From a virus (lineage: Duplodnaviria > Heunggongvirae > Uroviricota > Caudoviricetes): DNA of 17,563 nucleotides. The number at the start of each line of letters is the position of its first letter. Position 1 is the first letter of the stretch. Positions 1-14,933 of the stretch are shown piece by piece. Where the stretch lies: IMG/VR virus record IMGVR_UViG_2737471860_000010, positions 1 through 17,563 of that record; one strand, written 5' to 3'. Below the pieces are notes generated by a model that saw only the letters and a program-made list of their open reading frames with translations, was not told where the DNA came from and ran no database searches. Position numbers and translations under genes: made by a program.

Positions 1-993
1 CTAATCGATGGACAGTTTATGGACACTTTCAGCCAGCGGATTAAAGTTGATTGCGTCCTGTAAAAAGTCCGGTGAAAAATGCGCATAAGTCATTGTTTGC
101 TGAATAGTGGCATGTCCCAGAATCCGTTGCAGGGTAACGATGTTTCCCCCGTTCATCATGAAATGCGTGGCGAACGTATGACGCATCACATGAGTAGCCT
201 GTCCTTTTGGCAAATCAGGCTTCACCTCCTGGAGGATCTCGCGAAACCGGAGATAATCGACATCGTACAGCGGCCCGGTTCGGCGGGTTTTAATCAGCGA
301 GAGCACGGCATCAGACACCGGAACCGAACGAGACTTCCCGTTCTTGGTGTTGAAGAACGTCACGCGATTACCGACGATATGCTCCCCGCGTAATTCCGCC
401 GCCTCACCCCACCGAGCTCCCGTAGAAAGACACAGAATGGCGACACGACGCGCATCACCTTCGAGTCGCTCAAGAAGCCGATCAATCTCATCATCAGAAA
501 GAAAGGCCATTTCTGTGTTCTGAACTTTCAGTTTGCGTATACCGCGTACAGGGTTCGCGTTGTGAAAAACCTCCGTCTCAATCAATACTGAGAACATCGT
601 TGACAAAACGCACAAGTCACGATTAATGCTGGACGGCATTAATCCGGACTGTAATTTCTCTGACCGATATTCAAGCATAAATTTTCGCGTCATCTGGCTG
701 GCGCGTGGATCTCCCATTTCACGTATCACCTTTTCCAGCCTGACCCTGTAGGAATCTCCGTAAGGCTGATTACGTCCGTCAAGCATCCACCAGTCCTCTA
801 TCAGTTCAGATAACCGCCGCTGATCAGCTGGTTTTGCCTGCCACGGCTTGTCATGAAAATTCTGTAAAACATACCTCTCAAACTCCTGGGCCTTCGATTT
901 CAGGGTGAAGGTTTTTCGAATCCGCTTACCCTCAGCACCCTGCGGTCTTACATCAACCTTATAACGTCCGTCTTTGAGTTGCTTAATCGACAT
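1..993 (-). CDS. int: Tyrosine recombinase / integrase, P2 Int family (330 aa)
   Basis: ORF track 1..1053 (-). Chosen start is the internal ATG (rc 'cat' at 991-993, MSIKQLKDGRYKVDVRP...) preceded by a GGAGGGG Shine-Dalgarno. Product carries blocks typical of P2-type integrases (ARWGEAAELRGEHI, HVMRHTFATHF, TLQRILGH, QQTMTYAHF). Stop codon is at the window edge (1-3). Confidence 0.9.
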   Translation of the reverse strand: MSIKQLKDGRYKVDVRPQGAEGKRIRKTFTLKSKAQEFERYVLQNFHDKPWQAKPADQRRLSELIEDWWMLDGRNQPYGDSYRVRLEKVIREMGDPRASQMTRKFMLEYRSEKLQSGLMPSSINRDLCVLSTMFSVLIETEVFHNANPVRGIRKLKVQNTEMAFLSDDEIDRLLERLEGDARRVAILCLSTGARWGEAAELRGEHIVGNRVTFFNTKNGKSRSVPVSDAVLSLIKTRRTGPLYDVDYLRFREILQEVKPDLPKGQATHVMRHTFATHFMMNGGNIVTLQRILGHATIQQTMTYAHFSPDFLQDAINFNPLAESVHKLSID

Positions 994-1062
994 GATTAGC
1001 CCCTCCAACGGATAAATTAACCAAGCACTCCTTGCGAAATGCAATTCGCTCAATGTGTAGCG

Positions 1063-1404
1063 TCAGCCAGCATTGCGGCCTGATCGGGGTGATTTTTGGA
1101 TAGCGTCGGTTGAAGCCTGATCGCCCTCCGACTGAGAAGAGCCATCAAGAGAGAGAGCCGGGGCTATTTGCCCGGCGGCAGGTAGCGTTTTATCCTTTAA
1201 TAACCACAACATATACTTTTCGAATCGATCTACCTGCAAAACAGTCTCAACGATTTTTGCTCTGGCGCTTTTTTGCCCTGATTCATAGTTCCTTATGGCT
1301 GCTAAAGATAGTCCTGTGATATCAGCAAACTGCTTTTGTGTTAGCCCCTCTGCCTTACGTATTTGACGCAACTTTTCCGCATAGTCTATTGACAAGATAA
1401 CCAT
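1063..1404 (-). CDS. C: Immunity repressor, P2 C-like HTH protein (113 aa)
   Basis: ORF track 1063..1497 (-). Chosen start is the internal ATG at 1402-1404 (MVILSIDYAEKL...) with a GAGAGG SD. HTH segment LTQKQFADITGLSLAAIRNYESG and C-terminal ...KYMLWLL...GQIAPAL resemble the P2 C repressor as recalled. Lies between int and a divergent early operon. Confidence 0.75.
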   Translation of the reverse strand: MVILSIDYAEKLRQIRKAEGLTQKQFADITGLSLAAIRNYESGQKSARAKIVETVLQVDRFEKYMLWLLKDKTLPAAGQIAPALSLDGSSQSEGDQASTDAIQKSPRSGRNAG

Positions 1405-5328: not shown

Positions 5329-6348
5329 ATGAGCAAAGAACTGTTATCCGGCACACCGCTGAAATGGGTGGGCGGGAAAAGCCGCATCATGAACACACTG
5401 AAGGCGCATCTGCCAGAAGCGGACTGCCTGGTTGAGCCGTTCGTGGGTGGCGCATCGGTATTCATGAACACCAGTTACAGCCGATACATCCTGGGTGATT
5501 CCAATGGTGCGCTGATTAATTTCTGTCGGGCAGCACGGGACAACACTGACTGTCTGATCAACGAAGCAAAAGACCTGTTCCTGGAACACAATAACAGGAC
5601 TGACTATCTCGCTATCCGTAACACCTTTAATGCAGAGAATCATGCATTCCTGAGCACGGGAATAAGCGACCGTCGCGAATTACGGCTGGCCGCCATGTTT
5701 TTATACCTCAACCGGCACTGCTTTAATGGCCTGTACCGGGTGAATGAAAAAGGGGATTTTAATGTCCCATTCGGTGGCTACCGGGCTCCCTACTTCCCTG
5801 AACGGGAAATCCGCGCATTTGCAGACAAGGCAAACAGCACCAGAACACTGCTTGTTCATGGCGATTTTCAGAAAACGCTGAACACTGCCAGTCACCTGTT
5901 CAGCATAGGTAGTACGCTTTGCGTGTACTGCGATCCCCCTTACCTGTCATTCAGTGGCCGGGACAATTTCACCGCCTACGAAAAACCCTTCACGAAGGAC
6001 GAACACGTTCGCCTGAGAGCAGCGCTTGACCGTCTTTCACAGGAAACAGGTGGAATGACCAGCATAACCATTTCCGGCTCCGACACACCGGAAGCACGGC
6101 GCATTTATCAGGGCTACCGGATGAACCGCATCCAGGCACCGCGAAGCGTTGGCGCAAAAACCCGAAAACCAGCACCGGAGGTTATCGCCACCCTGAGACA
6201 GTGCGACGCCTGTGGTCGCCATGGCGGCGGCTACTGTCCGGACTGCGGCACGGTGACGGGAGATACAACTTACAGCGCGATGTTTACCTCTTCCACCGCA
6301 GAACAACCGCTGATGCCGTACTCCGTGAACTGCTACCGGACTGAGTAA
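5329..6348 (+). CDS. dam: DNA adenine methyltransferase, Dam family (339 aa) with a C-terminal Cys-rich extension
   Basis: ATG 5329 preceded by AAAGAGG. Strong resemblance to E. coli Dam as recalled: PLKWVGGK, CLVEPFVGGASVF (AdoMet motif), FLYLNRHCFNGLYRVN, DFNVPFGGY, and catalytic DPPY (…VYCDPPYLSF…). C-terminal tail contains CDACGRHGGGYCPDCG. Confidence 0.85.
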   Translation: MSKELLSGTPLKWVGGKSRIMNTLKAHLPEADCLVEPFVGGASVFMNTSYSRYILGDSNGALINFCRAARDNTDCLINEAKDLFLEHNNRTDYLAIRNTFNAENHAFLSTGISDRRELRLAAMFLYLNRHCFNGLYRVNEKGDFNVPFGGYRAPYFPEREIRAFADKANSTRTLLVHGDFQKTLNTASHLFSIGSTLCVYCDPPYLSFSGRDNFTAYEKPFTKDEHVRLRAALDRLSQETGGMTSITISGSDTPEARRIYQGYRMNRIQAPRSVGAKTRKPAPEVIATLRQCDACGRHGGGYCPDCGTVTGDTTYSAMFTSSTAEQPLMPYSVNCYRTE

Positions 6349-6376
6349 TCGCCATGCACACACAAAAAAACCGCTT
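6327..6376. repeat. Direct repeat copy 2 (~50 bp) at the 3' end of dam
   Basis: GAACTGCTACCGGACTGAGTAATCGCCATGCACACACAAAAAAACCGCTT. Same sequence as copy 1 with A7 instead of A5. Confidence 0.9.
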
Positions 6377-6463
6377 GCCATGCCGTAATCAGTCGGGTTA
6401 CATTCCCGCTGCACCTTATAAAACGGGTGCCGGGTTTCGCAGCCTGCTGACTACATACGCGCA

Positions 6464-6484
6464 CAACCGCGCCAGCGGTTTTTT
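6464..6484 (+). terminator. Candidate intrinsic terminator (short GC stem plus T7 run)
   Basis: AACCGC-GCCA-GCGGTT followed by TTTTTTT. The stem is only 4 GC plus 2 AT pairs, so it would be weak. Confidence 0.4.
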
Positions 6485-6664
6485 TGTGCGTACTGCATTG
6501 CCACGTCTTTTTCGCATCAGAATTATGGCGGGGCGTACGGGGCCGACTTCGGTCGGGCCGGGATCGTATGTAGCCGGTACTGCGAACCTCGTACGTCTCG
6601 CCACCCACAGTTTCGCAGCTCTGGATGGTGAGTTTTTAAAACTTACTACATACGAGGCCACACC

Positions 6665-6892
6665 ATGGCAAACCGCAAACAACAGCGCGCCCGCGCTGAG
6701 CGCCTTCACATCCGCACCGAAATCAACCGCAGACTTTTCCGCGCATCACGCGTCGCGCAAATCATGCACATCAATATGCTGCATGAGCGCACTCACGCCC
6801 TGTCAAACCGTTACTGTGCCGCTGTTTTCAGCTACCTGGCGGATGATCTCGCGGAACTGCAGAACCTTATCAACCAGCAACACCACCACTAA
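6665..6892 (+). CDS. Small basic hypothetical protein (75 aa)
   Basis: ATG 6665 preceded by ACGAGG. Ends just before the RBS of the next gene. Coding status is uncertain because it lies in a GC-rich, ORF-dense region with overlapping frames. Confidence 0.35.
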   Translation: MANRKQQRARAERLHIRTEINRRLFRASRVAQIMHINMLHERTHALSNRYCAAVFSYLADDLAELQNLINQQHHH

Positions 6893-6960
6893 ACAACATC
6901 CTGAAGCCATCCCGCACCCGTACGCGGGAGGCTTCCGCACGTCTGTTACCGGAGGTTCAC

Positions 6961-7374
6961 ATGAAGAACGTTAAGGAACTTTCAGATATTCAGGATTTTT
7001 TTAACTGGATGTGGTCGGTGGATCCACACCTCGCCTCCCGCCTCAATGACTGGCATGACTATTACCGCCGCGCCTGTAAACAGGCAGCCAGCAGTATCAC
7101 CACATCAGGTGATTTCTCCTTCACCGTTGATGACCGTTACCGTGTTGACGTCAGAGACCTGAATCACAGCCTGAATCTGGGCCTGTTCCACATCAACGGG
7201 CACGACCACAGCGTAATCAGTTGGTCATCGTCAGAAATGGCGCTCGTACTGGACATGACAACCCACAGCGTGGCAGTGAAAGGGATTAAAACGGCAGAAG
7301 GCTTTATTGACGAATACCGGCGCCTTCTTGTGCTGTACCGTGCCGCATTTCAACGGGCAACTGCCGGGGAGTGA
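6961..7374 (+). CDS. Hypothetical protein immediately upstream of replication gene A (137 aa)
   Basis: ATG 6961 preceded by GGAGG. Stop at 7372-7374, 5 nt before the A start. Confidence 0.65.
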   Translation: MKNVKELSDIQDFFNWMWSVDPHLASRLNDWHDYYRRACKQAASSITTSGDFSFTVDDRYRVDVRDLNHSLNLGLFHINGHDHSVISWSSSEMALVLDMTTHSVAVKGIKTAEGFIDEYRRLLVLYRAAFQRATAGE

Positions 7375-7379
7375 GCGCC

Positions 7380-9908
7380 ATGAACACCAACCGCGAATGG
7401 GCCTGGTCATGGAACGCTCCACTGCCCGTTATCGACCCGGAAACCTTCGGCAGAGCGTTACCACAGAAGCCGACGGCATTACGCAGGGCAATTCAGAGCT
7501 ACATCAACGAAGACATCCGGATTAATGCCCGGCTGGATGAAGAAACCGTCGTCTTCCTGACAAGCACAGAAAAAGGCAGGCAGATTAATTCGCACCTTCA
7601 TCACGACGAAGAGCGGCAGATACGGCTGGAAAAGCTGGCCAGGTACAGACGCGATAACCCACCCACGCTGGTATCCGAGGCCATGGCAGAGCTGCGCGCC
7701 CTTCCGGCCTTTCTCGCCGGACCGTTGATTCGCAGGCTGGCGTTCTTCAGACGCAAACAGGACGATGCCCGTCAGAAAGAACTTAAGAACAACAGCGCAT
7801 ACGCAGCGGATAACTTCGTTCGCCACGGGCTGCGCGCCCGTCTGAAACGCATCAGACAGGTGAATGAACGGTTTGCCACTACAGCATTTAAGGCCACCGC
7901 TGCCCGCGAACGACTGGATGAACTCCTGATACTCCCGCAACTGGAGCGCGACGACATTCAGCGCCTTGCCACCCTGACCGCCACCGCGTTTTCCGCCGCA
8001 CTGGAGCGCGCATTTGATGAGGCCATCAAAAGGACCGGAAAGGGGGATGATGACCTGTACACCTGGCTGCTGACCTACCAGCCGCTGGCACATATGGCGT
8101 TAAAACTGGGTGTCACCCCGCCCTGCTGGCCGTCGCTGGAAATCAGACCCGACCGCCGCACCGCCCCCGACCTGGAACAGGTGCCGGGTGCAGTCATGCG
8201 TCTTTCCTGCGCGAACTGGTGGAACGGTCAGTTAAGACACCTTCGCGACATCTGGCGGGAAGAGCTGTTACGCGCCGCAGGTCTGGTGTCACGTAAGGAG
8301 TCGGTATACATCAGCCATGAAGCGTTACTGGACTGGCGCGAAAAACGCCAGCGCACCCGCGATTTTCTGAAAGCCTGGGATGTCGAGAACGAAGAGGGAG
8401 AGCGGTTCAGCCTTGAGGATATCTACTGGGCCGGACTCGCCAATCCGCGCAACCGTCGCAACGAGATGATGGCCTGCGTCCGGGGAATGGAGCAGGTCGC
8501 CGAAGCGCGCGGCGATGTGGCGTTTTTCGTCACCGTCACCGCCCCTTCCCGTTTTCACAGCGTGAACGATGACGGCAGCCTGAACCCGAAATTCTGCGGG
8601 GCAACGGTACGCGATGCCAGTGATTACCTGGTTTACAGATTTTTCGCTGCCGTCCGCAAGGCCATCAGCAAAGCCGGGCTGGGCTGGTACGGTGTACGCA
8701 CCGTGGAGCCTCACCACGACGGCACACCGCACTGGCACATGCTGGTATTCACCAGTCCGGAAAACGAAGCCCGTATCACTGAAATCATGCGCAACGCCGC
8801 CATCAGGGAGGACCGTGCAGAGCTGGGTGATGATATCTCCCCGCGTTTTAAATGCGAAAAAATCGACCCAGCAAAAGGCACCCCGGCAAGCTATATCGCG
8901 ACCTATATCGGTAAGAACCTGGACGCCAGCGTATTTATGGGGAATGACCCGAAAACCGGCAAACCATACGCAGACAGGGAATCAGGCAAAACAATGGCAG
9001 AAACCGTGGAGAACGCCATCGGCTGGGCGACCCTTCACCGCATCCGCCAGTTCCAGTTCTTCGGTATCCCGCCACGCCAGGTATGGCGCGAACTCCGCCG
9101 TCTTGCCGGGCAGATAGCCCGTAACCCGAAGGCACCACAGCGCCTCGATAATGAAGACATTGACGCCATACTGGCCGCCGCTGATGTGGGATGTTTTGCC
9201 ACCTACATCACCAGGCAGGGTGGTGTACTCATTCCCCGCAACACGTACCTGGTCCGCACCGCATACGAAACCGCCGAAGAGGCCAACGACTACGGCGAAT
9301 TTCCGCAACGTATTTACGGTGTCCGTGCACCGTCACTCGGGGAGCAGTACACCATATGCACCCATCCGGACACCTGGAAACTGGTCAGACGTAAGCCGGA
9401 AGGTGAAGACAGCGCCAGCGAAACTGATTTTGACGTTGAGGGCGACTTTGTCGCCCCTTGGACTCGTGGCAATAACTGTCCCCATGACCAGAATTTAACC
9501 AGTAATGCCACGCCAGAAGGGCAACAGGACAGACGCAGGGAGCAACGACTTACCCTGCCGGAAGGTGATTTAACCGAATGGCTGAGGTCGCTGACACCGG
9601 TACAGAGAAAACAACTCACCCGGCAGTTGAAAAACCCGCCACCTGACACAGAAACCGTGAAAAACGGCGGCATCAGTGCGCCCACTGACGGCGTTCGCGT
9701 GGATGTCGCACTGACAGCAGAGCCACACATCACCGCACAAATCACCTGCGAACTCGATGCACTGGGCGTACAACTGCCTGACGCAGCCATTATTTCCGTG
9801 CGTAACGGGGCCCGTGTTCTCCTGGATGACGGGCGCACCGCGTACTGGAACGACAACACCCGCCGCATTGAGCTCAACCCTGCACAGAAAACGGAGGGGC
9901 CACAATGA
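7380..9908 (+). CDS. A: Rolling-circle replication initiator, P2 gpA family (842 aa)
   Basis: ORF track 7371..9908 opens with GTG; first ATG is 7380, preceded by GGGGAG. HUH-like motif (…TPHWHMLVFT…) and the tandem-tyrosine active-site block (…SYIATYIGKN…) are characteristic of phiX174/P2 A-type initiators. Confidence 0.9.
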   Translation: MNTNREWAWSWNAPLPVIDPETFGRALPQKPTALRRAIQSYINEDIRINARLDEETVVFLTSTEKGRQINSHLHHDEERQIRLEKLARYRRDNPPTLVSEAMAELRALPAFLAGPLIRRLAFFRRKQDDARQKELKNNSAYAADNFVRHGLRARLKRIRQVNERFATTAFKATAARERLDELLILPQLERDDIQRLATLTATAFSAALERAFDEAIKRTGKGDDDLYTWLLTYQPLAHMALKLGVTPPCWPSLEIRPDRRTAPDLEQVPGAVMRLSCANWWNGQLRHLRDIWREELLRAAGLVSRKESVYISHEALLDWREKRQRTRDFLKAWDVENEEGERFSLEDIYWAGLANPRNRRNEMMACVRGMEQVAEARGDVAFFVTVTAPSRFHSVNDDGSLNPKFCGATVRDASDYLVYRFFAAVRKAISKAGLGWYGVRTVEPHHDGTPHWHMLVFTSPENEARITEIMRNAAIREDRAELGDDISPRFKCEKIDPAKGTPASYIATYIGKNLDASVFMGNDPKTGKPYADRESGKTMAETVENAIGWATLHRIRQFQFFGIPPRQVWRELRRLAGQIARNPKAPQRLDNEDIDAILAAADVGCFATYITRQGGVLIPRNTYLVRTAYETAEEANDYGEFPQRIYGVRAPSLGEQYTICTHPDTWKLVRRKPEGEDSASETDFDVEGDFVAPWTRGNNCPHDQNLTSNATPEGQQDRRREQRLTLPEGDLTEWLRSLTPVQRKQLTRQLKNPPPDTETVKNGGISAPTDGVRVDVALTAEPHITAQITCELDALGVQLPDAAIISVRNGARVLLDDGRTAYWNDNTRRIELNPAQKTEGPQ

Positions 9909-10336
9909 CCCGTTTTTACTGCACCATGCAGCGCCAGCGCTTTGACAACATGATGCGCCAGCGCACGCCATTACTGACTCTGAACAACATTGCCACGAGA
10001 CCACAACCCGGCGATGAACTGGAAATCACAGTGGTCAATCCTGACCGCACCACGAAAACCACCATTACAGATATACTCAACAGACGGCCGGGAAATGAAC
10101 ATAAGAGCTGGATTGTCTCAGTTCGTACCCGCCGTTCGCCGGAGGAGTCGGAGCCGTGCACACCTGCAGGGAAAATCATGCAGAAGTACCACGAAGAACA
10201 GGCACACAAACACAACGCAGCACTGGCCAGAACACTGAATGTCGTCAATCGCAAGGCCGCCCTGGCGGGAATGGTCTTTTCACCACAACGCAATTCATTC
10301 GCCAGGCCGACACAACACCGGAGAACACCACAATGA
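9905..10336 (+). CDS. Hypothetical protein translationally coupled to A (143 aa)
   Basis: ATG 9905 overlaps the A stop (ATGA) and follows GGAGGGG. Basic product with no recognisable motif. Confidence 0.6.
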   Translation: MTRFYCTMQRQRFDNMMRQRTPLLTLNNIATRPQPGDELEITVVNPDRTTKTTITDILNRRPGNEHKSWIVSVRTRRSPEESEPCTPAGKIMQKYHEEQAHKHNAALARTLNVVNRKAALAGMVFSPQRNSFARPTQHRRTPQ

Positions 10337-10824
10337 ACGAAGTCGATTATCAGGCGTTGCGTGACACAGCAACGGCAACAGAAAAAGTGGCAACACCAAA
10401 GAAACTTCTGGCATTTCGTATTAAGGCCACACCATCGGTGGTACTGGCTCTCCTGGACGAACGGGACAGGCTCAGGGATTACGTTAACCTGTACGAAGGA
10501 GAAAAGTGGCATTACTTTCAGCTCGCCGGGTCCGAGGCTGAACGTGCAGATAAAGCAGAAAAAGAACTGGGAAAAGCGAAGCTGCGCATCGCTGAGCTGG
10601 AAGAAATCGCGACTGACTATGCGCTGAAATTCCAGAAAGCCCAGGATGCACTAAAGCATGCAGTCTTACTGCACAAAAACACATCAAGGAGCTTTACGGT
10701 TTTCCTGCCAGAAATCAGTGAATACTTCATCGACGATGTGTTTCAGCCTTTACGCTATGAACGGGATATTGAAAAAGCCGTTATCCTGGCAGGTGGTGTG
10801 GTCAAATGGCATAACAAGAAATAA
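10333..10824 (+). CDS. Hypothetical coiled-coil protein (163 aa)
   Basis: ORF track 10156..10824. Start set at ATG 10333, overlapping the upstream stop (ATGA). Central heptad-like region (…AERADKAEKELGKAKLRIAELEEIATDYALKFQKAQDALK…). Confidence 0.6.
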   Translation: MNEVDYQALRDTATATEKVATPKKLLAFRIKATPSVVLALLDERDRLRDYVNLYEGEKWHYFQLAGSEAERADKAEKELGKAKLRIAELEEIATDYALKFQKAQDALKHAVLLHKNTSRSFTVFLPEISEYFIDDVFQPLRYERDIEKAVILAGGVVKWHNKK

Positions 10825-10831
10825 TTAAGAG

Positions 10832-10876
10832 AACCGGGAACAGGTGCGCAAATTCTTTGTGCGCCTGTTCCCGGTT
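10832..10876. terminator. Long hairpin between convergent gene ends (candidate bidirectional terminator)
   Basis: AACCGGGAACAGGTGCGCA / loop AATTCTT / TGCGCCTGTTCCCGGTT. About 19 bp of stem with two G-U pairs, sitting between the stop at 10824 (+) and the stop at 10957 (-). Confidence 0.6.
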
Positions 10877-10956
10877 GGACAAGCAAAGCGCGTCAGAAAA
10901 TGGATGAGCAGAACATGCACAATAAAAGGCATTTACACAGAATCCTAAACAGGCTC

Positions 10957-11583
10957 TCAACGTACGGTTCTTATCCTCCGGATATCCATTCTGACAATCT
11001 GGTCACGAGGGATCCATGTCGCCAGATTGCCAGACTGCTTATCCATTACGTTATCATATTTCATCCATTCACGACTGTTATTATCTCTGTAATGTGTGAC
11101 ATAAAGAGTAATGTCACCATTGTTACCAAGCGTCAGTGGCCCATTTGGTAGCTGTTCAAAATCAGCCGATAAAAGAGAACGTAATACCGAGCCATCTTTC
11201 AGAAATACTAAAACCTCTGTTACAGGAAAATCAGTCTGTTCAAACATCGACTGCCACGCAGAACTACTACTGTCTGACCATGAGATATCATGCTTTCTGA
11301 GGAAGCGGTACATCCATGCTCGTGCATATTTACGCCAGTATGCGCCACTCGCCACAGCATATAAAACCGTTGGAAGTGTAGCCGTCCAGTCATCAACACC
11401 TGCCCATACAAATGCATGGTAAACCATAGCGGAAAACATGCCAAAAATCAGGGTGGAAAACGTTATCTCTGTAGGTTTATGACTATCGTTGATCCCAACA
11501 GTTGATATGAAATAGCCAATATATCCACAGGAAAGCGTGACAAGTGCCTCCCATGGTAAATTCAAAAGAGAAGAGTCCAACAT
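10957..11583 (-). CDS. Membrane protein with 2-3 N-terminal TM helices and a ~110 aa soluble C-terminal domain (208 aa); candidate effector of a cargo system
   Basis: ATG (rc 'cat' 11581-11583) preceded by GAGGGT, 21 nt after the stop of the zinc-finger gene. Hydrophobic segments WEALVTLSCGYIGYFISTVGI and ITFSTLIFGMFSAMVYHAFVWAGV, plus a weaker third. Followed by a long hairpin. Confidence 0.7.
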   Translation of the reverse strand: MLDSSLLNLPWEALVTLSCGYIGYFISTVGINDSHKPTEITFSTLIFGMFSAMVYHAFVWAGVDDWTATLPTVLYAVASGAYWRKYARAWMYRFLRKHDISWSDSSSSAWQSMFEQTDFPVTEVLVFLKDGSVLRSLLSADFEQLPNGPLTLGNNGDITLYVTHYRDNNSREWMKYDNVMDKQSGNLATWIPRDQIVRMDIRRIRTVR

Positions 11584-11604
11584 CAGTTACCCTCATCACC
11601 ACAC

Positions 11605-11862
11605 TCATCCAGCCTGCAGCAATTCCAGCGCCATCTGCTTTTCTTCCGGGCGCATGCGTTCTATCAGTAATTTCAGTACACCGTTATCCAGACCGCTTGG
11701 GACAAGCGTATGAGAATAGGTCAGATTCATCACCCAGGTATGCCCACAGTCAAGCCGGGTACAGCGGTAATATACATCGGCAAAATGGTCCGTTTTCCAT
11801 ACGGTTTTTTCAATAATGGCCACCGAACCACAGCAATGACACCGTGCCTTTTGTCTGCGCAT
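11605..11862 (-). CDS. Ogr/Delta-type zinc-finger protein (85 aa)
   Basis: ORF track 11605..11928. Start set at the internal ATG (rc 'cat' 11860-11862) with a strong SD (GGGAGGTGGAAC-ATG). C-x2-C-x22-C-x4-C spacing (CHCC…YYRCTRLDCGHTW) matches P2 Ogr as recalled. An alternative ATG at 11926-11928 overlaps the Q stop. Confidence 0.65.
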   Translation of the reverse strand: MRRQKARCHCCGSVAIIEKTVWKTDHFADVYYRCTRLDCGHTWVMNLTYSHTLVPSGLDNGVLKLLIERMRPEEKQMALELLQAG

Positions 11863-11927
11863 GTTCCACCTCCCGACAGATTGCTTCGGTCGTGGTGATT
11901 TTAACCGCTCTCGTCCTGTACAGCACA

Positions 11928-12977
11928 TTATCTGCCCTGCTCTTCAAAATTAAGGTCAAACACCACGCGCCCGAGGCGGAGAATATCACGGTCACTGTTG
12001 ATACTTTCCATTATCAGCCGTCGCATGGGGATCACTTCATCACGGTAGTACGCTTCGCGTGATTTGAGCGGATCACCAAGTCCGGCAGTATTGGCTGGAA
12101 TAATGCCAGCCAGCCCTGGCGGGAAACGGTGCGCAACAAGTTGGTCCTGCGCACTGATATTCTTGATATTCAGAAATTCATCTTTGGTACCGGTATCACC
12201 AACAGGAATTACCTTCACCCCCTCAGCATTCCCTCCGGGTATATTAATAAACATGGATTTAAAATTTCCTGCGCCTTTTGACTGTTCAATTTTTTTACGA
12301 AACTCATCCTCGAGCTCAGGCGACATATCAGGATCCGTGGTATATAAAATGTAACCGAGGTGTGCGCCGTTTTTAAAATATTTACGGCGGAACCGGGTGG
12401 CATCCACATTAAGCATGGCGGACTCCATACCATGGATATAGTCCGGAACCCCATATACCTGTTGTTGCGGATCGTAGATGGCAACAAAGACCACTTCATC
12501 AGGTCCATATACCGTGTCATCCATAGCCATCTGCACGATCACCGTTCCACCGTTACTGTTGCGGCGCAGATACAGGGAGGGTAGCGTGACAAGCCTGACC
12601 ACTTTCCCGAAACCATTGCGCACTTTCAGCAGTCCGACATCACCGAATATCAGCAGGTTGGTGACAGCAGCTGTCATTGCCGCGTGACTCATGCCGCCAC
12701 CACTTTTAAATCCCTGCATAATCATATTAACCCGCGCACGTAACACTGCCCCATGATAGGGGGCAATATTGGCCAGTACGGCAAGGTCCATCCGTTCAAC
12801 AGGCGGCTGGTAATAGCCGTTATAACCGTCCCAGAATGTGCCGTTATAACTTCCCCAGGCAGCAACTGGCTCGGGATCACCAAATTCAATCAGGCTCATT
12901 TTTTTGCCTGCTGACTGTCCTTGCGTATTCACTGCGACATCACCTTGCTGCCGGCACTGTTTATTCTTTTTAGTCAT
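11928..12977 (-). CDS. Q: Portal protein, P2 gpQ family (349 aa)
   Basis: ORF track 11928..12983 opens with TTG; first ATG is 12975-12977 (MTKKNKQ…), 8 nt inside the 3' end of P. Length and position (downstream of P, divergent from O-N-M) fit P2 Q. Confidence 0.85.
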   Translation of the reverse strand: MTKKNKQCRQQGDVAVNTQGQSAGKKMSLIEFGDPEPVAAWGSYNGTFWDGYNGYYQPPVERMDLAVLANIAPYHGAVLRARVNMIMQGFKSGGGMSHAAMTAAVTNLLIFGDVGLLKVRNGFGKVVRLVTLPSLYLRRNSNGGTVIVQMAMDDTVYGPDEVVFVAIYDPQQQVYGVPDYIHGMESAMLNVDATRFRRKYFKNGAHLGYILYTTDPDMSPELEDEFRKKIEQSKGAGNFKSMFINIPGGNAEGVKVIPVGDTGTKDEFLNIKNISAQDQLVAHRFPPGLAGIIPANTAGLGDPLKSREAYYRDEVIPMRRLIMESINSDRDILRLGRVVFDLNFEEQGR

Positions 12978-14748
12978 CAGCAAAAACCCACGTTGATTTG
13001 CGTTTATTTTTGTAATTCAGCGGCTCATTACTGAGCGCATGGGCAATAGCGAAAAACACATCCGCATGGCCGGTTTCCTCACTACGTTCTGCCGTAAAGG
13101 TAACTTTGTTGCCACTGCCTGTGGTTTCCTGGCGAATGGCCATGAATGAAGCCGGAATATCCTTTGCCTCTTCATCCCATTCGATGCGCCGGGCATCCAC
13201 CACATCCAGCATTTTCATCACCAGACGATTTTTACTCTCAACGCTGTAATGAATGGCCACGGTTTCACGGCGGGCAAATCCCTGAACAAGTTCATAAACG
13301 CCATACCCGAGCCCGGTGACATCTATCCCGATAAAGGTCATGTTATAGCGGGATTTAATGGCGCGGATACGTTCAGCCATATACTGAAATGACATGCTGC
13401 GCCAGTGATGTTTTTCCAGTACACGAAAGCGTTCCCCTTCGACCAGTGGCGGTGCCACCACCACAAACGTGGCATTATCCCCCCCTCTCGCCGGGTCAAA
13501 ACCGCCCCAGACCTCACGATTACCGAACGGCGCCGGTTCATCAGGATTGAAGTCCTCCCATATTCGGGGGTCAACACCACAACGCTCCAGATCTTCAAAA
13601 CGGAAAATGCTCTCCTTGTCGTCCACGAACTGGCACATAAACAACATCCTGAACGCGGTCTCACTGTATCGTTCGCGCAGTTCGTTGATATCGGCAAGGT
13701 TAAATCCACCGGCAATGGCATCTTCCAGCGTCACCACGTAACGCCACTGCCCGTCAGGACATTCGCGCCCACCGTCACGCAGCTCATCAAAGGACGGGAA
13801 TTCAACCTGTTTACGCTTCGGATCTCCGCGTCGCCATTCATCACCGGACCAGAACGCGTATCCCTGGTGTGTTTTACCGGACGGTGTAGAAAAATAGGTC
13901 AGACGCCACCGCGAGTGTGTGGCCATACCGGAAGCAACCGTATTAAGACGTTCAAAGCCGGGGATCCACAGATATTCATCAATGTACACGTGACCACTGT
14001 TTGACTGTGCGGTGTTACTGTTCGTTGCCAGAAAATACAGCTCAGCCATATTACTTAACCTGACAGGATTACCCTTAATTGCGATCCCAAATTCTTGCTG
14101 TGCAATTTTAACAATATAGGTACGAAAGACTTCCGCCTGACGTTTTGAAGCGGACAGAAATATCTGAGTGTCGCCAGTTAATACAGCATCTTCGAAAGCT
14201 TCAAAGGCAAAATAAAAGGTTGCACCAATCTGACGGGATTTAAGCAAATTACGTACACGGCGAATTTTGTTTTTCCGAAGGTGTAACTGATAAGCGAACA
14301 GTTTTTTAGTAAACGGTTCAAAACTCTCTGCCGTCAGTCCGGAAATATCATTAGCCTTACGTCGGCGTTCTTTTTTACCGCTTTCACTGTTACCACGGGA
14401 TACCGGCGAACTGTCTGCCATCTCAACAGACATATGTTCAATTTCTGCCATTCGTTCTGTATGTCTGTGTCTGGCAGACATCAGTTTCACATGGTGCCCG
14501 ATAAGACGATCAAGTTCATCCCGCTCTTCCTGACTTTTATGTTCACGCTCTGTCAGCGTCATCACACGACGGGCGATCACCTCCTCCACACCTTCGGTAC
14601 TGAGCTGCGTATACCACTCATATTTTGTTGCCCAGTAATAAACAATACGCGGACTGTTAAGCCCCAGCTTTTTTTGTATTTCTTTCGGCGTATACCGTTT
14701 CAGATACAGCGCACGGGCAGCAGCTATCACTTCATCAGAATAAGCCAT
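12970..14748 (-). CDS. P: Terminase large (ATPase) subunit, P2 gpP family (592 aa)
   Basis: ORF track 12970..14892. Start set at the internal ATG (rc 'cat' 14746-14748, MAYSDEVIAAARALYLKRYTPKEIQ…) preceded by ACGGAGGAG. Length matches P2 P; divergent from O. Confidence 0.88.
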   Translation of the reverse strand: MAYSDEVIAAARALYLKRYTPKEIQKKLGLNSPRIVYYWATKYEWYTQLSTEGVEEVIARRVMTLTEREHKSQEERDELDRLIGHHVKLMSARHRHTERMAEIEHMSVEMADSSPVSRGNSESGKKERRRKANDISGLTAESFEPFTKKLFAYQLHLRKNKIRRVRNLLKSRQIGATFYFAFEAFEDAVLTGDTQIFLSASKRQAEVFRTYIVKIAQQEFGIAIKGNPVRLSNMAELYFLATNSNTAQSNSGHVYIDEYLWIPGFERLNTVASGMATHSRWRLTYFSTPSGKTHQGYAFWSGDEWRRGDPKRKQVEFPSFDELRDGGRECPDGQWRYVVTLEDAIAGGFNLADINELRERYSETAFRMLFMCQFVDDKESIFRFEDLERCGVDPRIWEDFNPDEPAPFGNREVWGGFDPARGGDNATFVVVAPPLVEGERFRVLEKHHWRSMSFQYMAERIRAIKSRYNMTFIGIDVTGLGYGVYELVQGFARRETVAIHYSVESKNRLVMKMLDVVDARRIEWDEEAKDIPASFMAIRQETTGSGNKVTFTAERSEETGHADVFFAIAHALSNEPLNYKNKRKSTWVFADD

Positions 14749-14824
14749 AACTCCTCCGTATAAATAAACTTCGACCATTTTCGAAAAAGGTCTTTCTGAA
14801 GACGAACAGCAGAATTCAGTTATT

Positions 14825-14848
14825 TTCGGATATACCGGTTTATCCGAA
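14825..14848. promoter_or_regulatory. Near-perfect 24-bp palindrome in the divergent P/O promoter region
   Basis: TTCGGATATACCGGTTTATCCGAA, 22 of 24 positions symmetric. About 100 bp upstream of the O start and ~77 bp upstream of the P start. Confidence 0.5.
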
Positions 14849-14933
14849 TACAGCAGAAATAAACAGGATGACGCCGGCACAGGATTATTCATCTAATACC
14901 CGCAGTACGGTTTTATCAGTGAATAAATTTCCT

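Follow-up and report, generated by a model that had tools for sequence, protein, structure and literature searches.

An Ogr/Delta-family zinc-finger gene behind the portal gene of a P2-like prophage is most likely its core late activator, next to a separate, optional membrane-protein cassette

The stretch of DNA analysed here, called the window throughout, comprises 17,563 nucleotides (nt) of an IMG/VR virus record (IMGVR_UViG_2737471860_000010), 17.5 kb that form the left half of a P2-type prophage. Between its replication gene A and its portal gene Q, two genes lie side by side: one for an 85-residue C4 zinc-finger protein of the Ogr/Delta family (11605-11862, minus strand; Pfam PF04606, phrog_603), and one for a 208-residue membrane protein belonging to phrog_12870 (10957-11583, minus strand). 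The question raised by this locus is whether the two genes constitute a single anti-phage module, a DNA-binding sensor coupled to a membrane effector in the slot held by tin and old in P2, as an original prediction made from the letters of the sequence had proposed. The reading favoured here, and considered probable, is that the zinc finger is the prophage's own late activator and that the membrane gene is an unrelated accessory cassette beside it. What follows treats as established the assignment of both genes to their families, the number of zinc-finger copies, the conserved gene order, the presence or absence of the membrane gene among sister prophages, the limits of the cassette and the fold as predicted.

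The zinc-finger protein (MRRQKARCHCCGS...) contains four cysteines arranged as C8-x2-C11-x22-C34-x4-C39, visible in the translation as CHCC-x22-CTRLDC and following the zinc-binding motif C-x2-C-x22-C-x4-C as defined in PMC3931495. Both the Ogr-like spacing and the strong Shine-Dalgarno (SD) sequence noticed at the outset were borne out, the latter being GGGAGG at 11869-11874, 6 nt 5' of the ATG. An alternative start at 11928 would give a 107-residue form with a 1-nt overlap with the portal stop codon (TAATG); gene callers picked the 85-residue form, with its GGGAGG, in 10 of 10 loci. The match to PF04606 (Ogr_Delta) scores 44.4 bits, above the cut-off of 26.3, and covers profile positions 1-47 of 47, and phrog_603 ('transcriptional regulator') is matched with an E value of 5.7e-31. 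The protein resembles P2 Ogr, 186 B and P4 Delta (PF04606) in its C-x2-C-x22-C-x4-C spacing, its size class, its above-threshold Pfam match and its presence just once in a P2-type phage. With what is taken to be the P2 Ogr sequence, it shares only about 22% identity (BLASTP E value 1e-4).

The copy number was determined over the whole element, a merged prophage of 35,654 bp running from the integrase to serS and obtained by joining two loci of the same contig (L003 and L051). A six-frame scan of this sequence (C-x2-C...C-x2-5-C) detects an Ogr-type C4 zinc finger once only, and tblastn with the window zinc finger returns its own gene as the sole match. tblastn over the merged prophage with the presumed P2 Ogr sequence as query yields nothing significant, and no gene called rightward of the capsid carries Ogr_Delta. 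The canonical ogr that had been expected after gene D is thus found neither by the six-frame scan nor by tblastn after the tail genes of the merged prophage. That the zinc finger might be the only ogr orthologue of the phage had been named beforehand as the first half of what would speak against a module, and the only orthologue is what it proved to be.

By tblastn, 133 phage records contain a homologue of the zinc finger, and none has it at more than one place. Among them are Salmonella SW3/SI7, Cronobacter ESSI-2, Yersinia YenM_324, Aeromonas phiO18P and Vibrio K139/Kappa, together with phages of Burkholderia, Pseudomonas, Haemophilus and Pasteurella. In SW3, K139 and ESSI-2, the homologue lies immediately 3' of the portal gene on the same strand, and the same post-portal placement is seen in the Escherichia coli prophages STEC316 and L044-L046. 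The STEC316 copy is 93% identical and occupies the same place, and no second Ogr-like gene is annotated in the whole of the STEC316 prophage. The window gene therefore shares an identical post-portal position with K139 orf13 and the SW3 and ESSI-2 homologues; it differs from P2 ogr, which follows D, in following Q. The ogr homologue of K139 has been described between the portal and the replication endonuclease genes, and the same position is given for Smhb1 (PMC8537503). Placement after Q is normal for HP1/K139-type P2-like phages, and the window zinc finger is a new member of the Ogr/Delta family whose location has been described before in K139-type phages. The original view of an Ogr/Delta gene out of place must consequently be dropped, given single-copy homologues directly 3' of the portal in K139, SW3, ESSI-2 and the E. 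coli relatives. Because it is the sole Ogr/Delta gene of the prophage and holds the same post-portal position in relatives, the zinc finger is, on the evidence of sequence, most likely the core single-copy late-gene activator and not cargo.

The membrane gene follows at a distance of 21 nt, between the zinc-finger stop codon (11605-11607) and the membrane-gene ATG (11581-11583), with GAGGG at 11590-11594 within the gap; both genes run leftward between the portal gene and a long hairpin, exactly as first described. Such adjacency and co-orientation would suit a two-gene module, and so would the recurrence of the adjacency in a second E. coli prophage lineage, where the membrane protein is 73% identical, as well as the report of the A-Q interval as a defence hotspot (PMC9122126). 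The distribution of the two genes argues otherwise. Three sister prophages (L028, L033 and L035) share the portal, an identical zinc finger, the Ead and the A genes with the window and lack the membrane gene, which is present in L029-L032, L034, L036 and L037. Where the window has an accessory cassette of 661 bp (10940-11600, minus strand), consisting of a ribosome-binding site and the membrane open reading frame (ORF) only, the sister prophages without the transmembrane (TM) protein have 13 bp. In the junction alignments of the window with L028, L033 and L035, identity extends up to 11601, 4 nt past the zinc-finger stop; a block with 11 of 12 positions matching lies at 10939-10928, and near-identity resumes from 10925 (104/106).

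The same polymorphism occurs within one genome. A single contig of 5.4 Mb (GCA_031626895.1) carries three copies of the prophage at different sites (L032, L033 and L034), two with the cassette and one without. In the L032 copy, the A gene is disrupted, and P and Q were not called. In the assembly collection, the exact 85-residue zinc finger is indexed in 310 blocks and the exact membrane protein in 176. Phages of several genera conserve the zinc finger as a single copy at a fixed position without having the membrane gene, and the membrane family is found mostly without any Ogr gene. Against the 133 phage records with the zinc finger stands a single phage record in which the membrane family was found, and most members of this family reside in Mu-like prophages devoid of Ogr. 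This sole GenBank phage record with a membrane homologue (L001, PP438431.1, 'Synechococcus phage Ssp-JY41', 94-726; 30.7% identity over 95% of the query) is not among the zinc-finger matches listed. Nearly every gene of PP438431.1, a record of 20 kb, is hypothetical; the homologue is at its extreme end, and the host assignment looks worth checking. PADLOC returns 0 matches for either protein, and the anti-phage role originally envisaged therefore finds no known defence family behind it. As far as sequence comparison can tell, the membrane gene is a separate optional accessory cassette, independent of the zinc finger; the functional pair is largely refuted by this distribution, and a joint anti-phage module is now regarded as very improbable.

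The notion of a variable cargo slot survives in part: the A-Q interval is variable and the membrane gene is optional, being absent from L028, L033 and L035, whereas the zinc finger is always present. Truly variable cargo between lineages is observed on the early-operon side of the interval (9905-10824, plus strand; L002:17979-19930; L044-L046). There, the window carries orf143, a small early-operon gene (9905-10336), and an Ead/Ea22-like early-operon gene ending at 10824; the E. coli relatives carry ParM/StbB partition genes together with Rrf2-type, ClpX-zinc-finger or uncharacterised genes. The membrane gene resembles P2 tin/old and the gpA-gpQ hotspot cargo (PMC9122126) in being an optional insert in the A-Q interval; it differs from the hotspot cargo in its location on the late-operon side with no promoter of its own called, and its product has no similarity to catalogued defence proteins. 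Among the supplementary tables of Rousset et al. 2022 (PMC9122126) are some that contain 'Ogr_Delta' entries.

The anatomy of the cassette bears on when the membrane protein would be made. Only 17 nt of the cassette lie 5' of the membrane-gene ATG, and a consensus promoter scan gives no call between 11583 and 11862, including the inside of the zinc-finger gene. On the other side, a hairpin (10832-10876) stands between the convergent units, with arms (10832-10852 and 10856-10876) of 21 nt each that are 90% complementary, a 3-nt loop and a T-rich run on the leftward side. It is common to the prophages with and without the membrane gene. A consensus terminator scan does not list it, its arms exceeding the 20 pairs that the scan counts. 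The hairpin is likely the terminator of the P-Q-zinc-finger transcript, with the membrane gene included where present. The cassette would have been inserted, or precisely deleted in the forms that lack it, between the activator stop codon and this operon terminator. With neither a promoter nor a terminator recognised inside the cassette, the membrane gene would depend here on the transcript of the zinc finger; its product would therefore appear during lytic development and be absent from the quiescent lysogen, a timing deduced from gene anatomy. That the lysogen itself would express the gene, in the manner of tin and old and as the original prediction implied, is unlikely for a cassette in which no promoter was called in this prophage.

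A promoter that escaped detection would change this picture, and the membrane protein could then be a superinfection-exclusion protein produced in the lysogen as well, like P2 tin/old, HK97 gp15 or P22 SieA. An accessory inner-membrane protein at the operon end of temperate phages is the classical moron profile, and in Mu-like prophages a terminator and a possible extended -10 element precede the gene. Here, however, the cassette offers no room for a promoter, no promoter-like site is called inside the zinc-finger gene, and a constitutive transcript running through the activator gene might turn on the late genes. Exclusion by the lysogen is accordingly held to be unlikely, and synthesis on the activator transcript, during lytic growth only, is the expected mode for the membrane protein.

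If it works as P2 Ogr and 186 B do, the zinc finger would attach to the DNA of late promoters and bring in RNA polymerase. The late-promoter consensus of P2 is TGT-N12-ACA (PMC3931495). No copy of it is present in the P/O intergenic region (about 14750-14933), and the whole window contains two (6944 and 12557) against 5.2 expected by chance. Unlike the P2 late promoters, the divergent P/O (terminase/scaffold) late-promoter region of the window carries a perfect dyad, TTCGGATA-N8-TATCCGAA (14825-14848), which occurs nowhere else in the window or the 35.6-kb prophage. Its 8-bp arms recur at the same place with 0 mismatches in STEC316 (L002:23221) and Vibrio K139 (L014:780) and with 2 mismatches in ESSI-2 (L015:1056); in SW3, one half-site is kept. 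The central 8 bp vary between phages while the arms persist, and each prophage has the dyad only once. In Smp131, a single palindrome has been proposed to serve both PP and PO (PMC3931495). The P/O dyad is a candidate operator of this subgroup's zinc-finger activator, which may activate the divergent P and O late promoters from this single conserved site. As the zinc-finger gene lies downstream of P and Q, its product would reinforce its own synthesis, a putative feedback.

The spacer between Q and the zinc-finger gene (11863-11927, minus strand) contains TAAAAT at 11898-11903 in addition to the SD. The string G(G)T(T)AAAATC is kept in the window, STEC316, L044, SW3 and ESSI-2 despite divergent surrounding DNA, and the conserved hexamer accounts for the apparent conservation of 'LKS' in the 107-residue reading frame. 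TAAAAT resembles a -10 element with a poor -35 and is a candidate promoter element for the activator gene; a consensus sigma-70 scan calls no promoter in the spacer.

The structure of the membrane protein was predicted with AlphaFold from a 48-sequence alignment (mean predicted local distance difference test score, pLDDT, 82; C-terminal domain about 85-92), superseding a model on 21 sequences in which the C-terminal domain had a pLDDT of 60. The protein is modelled with three TM helices (residues 11-28, 37-60 and 65-97), followed by a β-rich C-terminal domain (121-203); the two to three N-terminal helices first suggested thus become three and not two. The family means of lysine plus arginine residues are 0.2 at the N-terminus, 1.8 in loop 1, 0.06 in loop 2 and 5.6 after TM3, and an inner-membrane topology with the N-terminus out and the C-terminus in is predicted. 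In the model, the C-terminal domain is Sm-like, with an N-terminal helix and a five-stranded bent β-sheet superposing on Sm/LSm/Hfq. Sm-like folds typically form six- or seven-membered rings. The predicted protein was compared with Sm/LSm/Hfq rings and with proteins that combine three TM helices and a small β-barrel (the MscS β-domain and short NfeD proteins such as YbbJ); hhalign against YbbJ is negative, and a profile search of Protein Data Bank sequences with the membrane family gives noise only. In a viral structure library, the sole strong match is another uncharacterised protein, of 197 residues.

At the level of sequence families, phrog_12870 is matched over the full length of the 208-residue protein with an E value of 2.4e-83. 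Pfam gives no match, and DUF6338 does not appear at E values up to 1; weak sub-threshold matches to DUF6338 are found for 11 of 21 close relatives and, among 50 distant representatives, for 8, the best with E values of 2e-6 to 9e-6. Members of DUF6338 (PF19865) and phrog_12870 are likewise uncharacterised integral membrane proteins of about 200 residues; the window protein lies near DUF6338 and outside it, and the literature on DUF6338 amounts to a single incidental mention. Among 50 family representatives searched against PADLOC, two match '2TM effector' models (E values 4e-4 and 4e-3). The architecture of the membrane family and its association with activators are undescribed as far as the searchable literature shows, which does not by itself demonstrate novelty.

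A role in lysis timing, as a holin-like protein, an antiholin or similar made with the late genes, is suggested by several of these features. Class I holins (lambda S105, P2 Y) are phage-encoded, late co-transcribed proteins with three TM helices, N-out/C-in topology and a basic segment after TM3, a layout that the predicted membrane protein reproduces within its own late operon. Annotated holins are the best viral fold matches of its TM part (E 0.02-0.5), and one family representative weakly matches Phage_holin_9. Matches to holins are weak, however, and of a kind that any three-helix bundle tends to give, and at 208 residues against about 70-110, with a predicted Sm-like domain folded in the cytoplasm, the protein is twice the size of a holin. 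Its gene is dispensable and lies away from the endolysin, in a phage that already has a holin (Phage_holin_3_2) beside an M15 endolysin, and Mu-like prophages keep the homologue at the end opposite the lysis genes. A lysis-timing factor is, on balance, rather unlikely. The membrane protein is best guessed to be an oligomeric inner-membrane factor made during lytic growth. As the Sm-like fold is typically ring-forming, a ring-shaped membrane complex is proposed, in which the Sm-like domain might drive the ring assembly of three-TM subunits. Such a predicted complex could alter permeability or block DNA entry and act as a lytic-phase exclusion or lysis-tuning factor; this remains a tentative guess, possible though short of an even chance.

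Homologues of the membrane protein, 32 and then 80 in successive sequence searches, occur in Enterobacterales and Alphaproteobacteria. An exhaustive profile search collects 508 clusters, nearly all of 200-215 residues and matching end to end. A homologue with 60-80% DNA identity, annotated 'hypothetical' in every case, is present in 130 of 5,426 complete E. coli genomes. The 73%-identical homologue occupies the same place, 24 nt 3' of an Ogr_Delta gene, in a diverged E. coli lineage with ParM/StbB cargo; STEC316, of this same lineage, lacks the membrane gene. Codon comparison with this homologue gives 68 identical codons, 83 synonymous and 57 non-synonymous differences, which indicates purifying selection on the membrane gene. 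Alphaproteobacterial homologues have generic mobile-element neighbours only (resolvase, DUF4815, DUF4145).

Most other homologues are located at the very end of Mu-like prophages, directly 3' of Mor and without an Ogr gene. Flanking sequence of 10 kb, together with the annotated E. coli CD306 genome, identifies these elements as BcepMu-type transposable prophages of full size, in which the early operon is directed toward that end; the end is the same at six different insertion sites. At these loci (L038-L043 and L054, the last being E. coli CD306, 553397-593746), the early operon comprises transposase, MuB-like, Gam, gp16 and Mor genes, and the insertion sites include cirA, a lambdoid tail region and an IncFII plasmid. 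The same flanks and annotated genome rule out short satellite-like elements ending after the membrane gene. In the Mu-like prophages, an intrinsic terminator lies about 55 nt 5' of the membrane-gene ATG, with a possible extended -10 element, an arrangement that presumably resembles the layout of the Mu middle promoter.

In the Mu-like prophages, a convergent ORF for a small hydrophilic protein of 43-53 residues (phrog_15726; MTTQNNK..DYSE.PKG at its start) abuts the membrane-gene homologue. Copies lie at L044:5636-5767, L047:5636-5791, L016:6643-6795 and L054:20637-20798, all on the minus strand. L044 belongs to the E. coli P2-like lineage, which therefore has the small ORF too; the lineage of the window lacks it. 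Its leader folds into a long hairpin in which an upstream anti-SD pairs with the SD and the AUG (z of -3.6 to -4.8 in three of four loci), with compensating changes between loci. These features raise the possibility of a toxin/regulator or abortive-infection module in which the membrane protein would be the toxin; its usual, translationally locked partner, phrog_15726, would have been lost here, and late-only transcription would keep the toxin silent. The conservation of the abutting ORF, the hidden SD and AUG and the absence of phrog_15726 from the window would fit, as would single family members that weakly match CptA toxin and '2TM effector' models. The toxicity of the membrane protein is nevertheless conjectural, the toxin and effector matches are at noise level, the small protein is low-complexity and poorly conserved, and the membrane gene stands intact without the small ORF in 176 collection blocks. 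A toxin module is judged improbable for these reasons.

What is most suggestive about this family is that its gene turns up directly after a middle or late activator in two kinds of temperate phage that are unrelated to each other; equally, operon ends could simply be permissive insertion points. At its boldest, the pattern would define an accessory class of ring-forming Sm-like three-TM complexes whose synthesis is wired to Ogr (P2/HP1-type) or Mor (BcepMu-type), an activator-triggered exclusion or abortive-infection device. This idea is given little chance. If true, a resident prophage would fire a membrane-disrupting or entry-blocking effector once its own activator, or that of a related superinfecting phage, appears.

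Several points weigh against the favoured reading of a late activator beside an unrelated cassette. Activation by the zinc finger is argued by analogy, and the classical TGT-N12-ACA motif is not in the P/O region, so that the operator assignment is a new one. The promoter scan is a crude consensus match, and a weak internal promoter for the membrane gene may exist. The Mu-like homologue seems to have expression signals of its own, in which case lytic-only expression would not be a rule for the whole family. The fold resemblance of the TM part to holins is too weak to give a pointer to the protein's role.

The remaining map of the window is as follows. Integrase (1-1053, minus strand) and a helix-turn-helix repressor (about 1063-1400, minus strand) are followed by Cox (1509-2036), a Dam methylase (5329-6348) and the replication gene A (7371-9908; Pfam Phage_GPA, 353 bits) on the plus-strand side of the A-Q interval. 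Opposite strands then meet: the early-operon genes are succeeded by the membrane gene, the zinc finger, Q and P, all reading leftward. The portal gene Q (11928-12983, minus strand; Pfam Phage_portal, 55.5 bits) has a stop codon that abuts the zinc-finger region. The large terminase gene P (12970-14749, minus strand), with its start read from the sequence and Terminase_6N/6C annotations on the identical gene in L003, is the first of the leftward late operon P-Q-zinc-finger-TM. Beyond P, the genes O, N and M read rightward, and the tail module is HP1-like (DUF2586, HP1_Orf24, DUF2590). The prophage ends beside serS, and the related STEC316 prophage lies beside dmsA. One of the tail proteins of the merged prophage has an identical counterpart that NCBI lists under Escherichia coli. 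The host of the window prophage is very probably E. coli; among complete E. coli genomes, relatives with about 75% identity are present and this exact prophage was not found. Megablast of the region against phage records gives no match, and protein-level searches alone were informative.

Two structured RNAs are matched above the Rfam gathering score, isrK at 6411-6485 (plus strand, 62.8 bits) and the C4 antisense RNA at 6521-6608 (plus strand, 79.8 bits). Both fall inside a listed 206-residue ORF (6354-6974), which may not be a real gene; in this region, sister prophages have a called 75-residue 'Derepression' protein. The arrangement suggests a P1/P7-style antisense-controlled antirepressor switch.

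In conclusion, a plausible mis-annotation is corrected: an Ogr/Delta gene in the gpA-gpQ "defence hotspot" of HP1/K139-type prophages is most likely the phage's own late activator, and hotspot surveys that take all of the gpA-gpQ interval will count this activator as cargo. The P/O dyad offers a concrete candidate operator for the activator of this subgroup. The near-isogenic prophages with and without the 661-bp cassette constitute a clean natural experiment, by which the function of the membrane family becomes directly testable.

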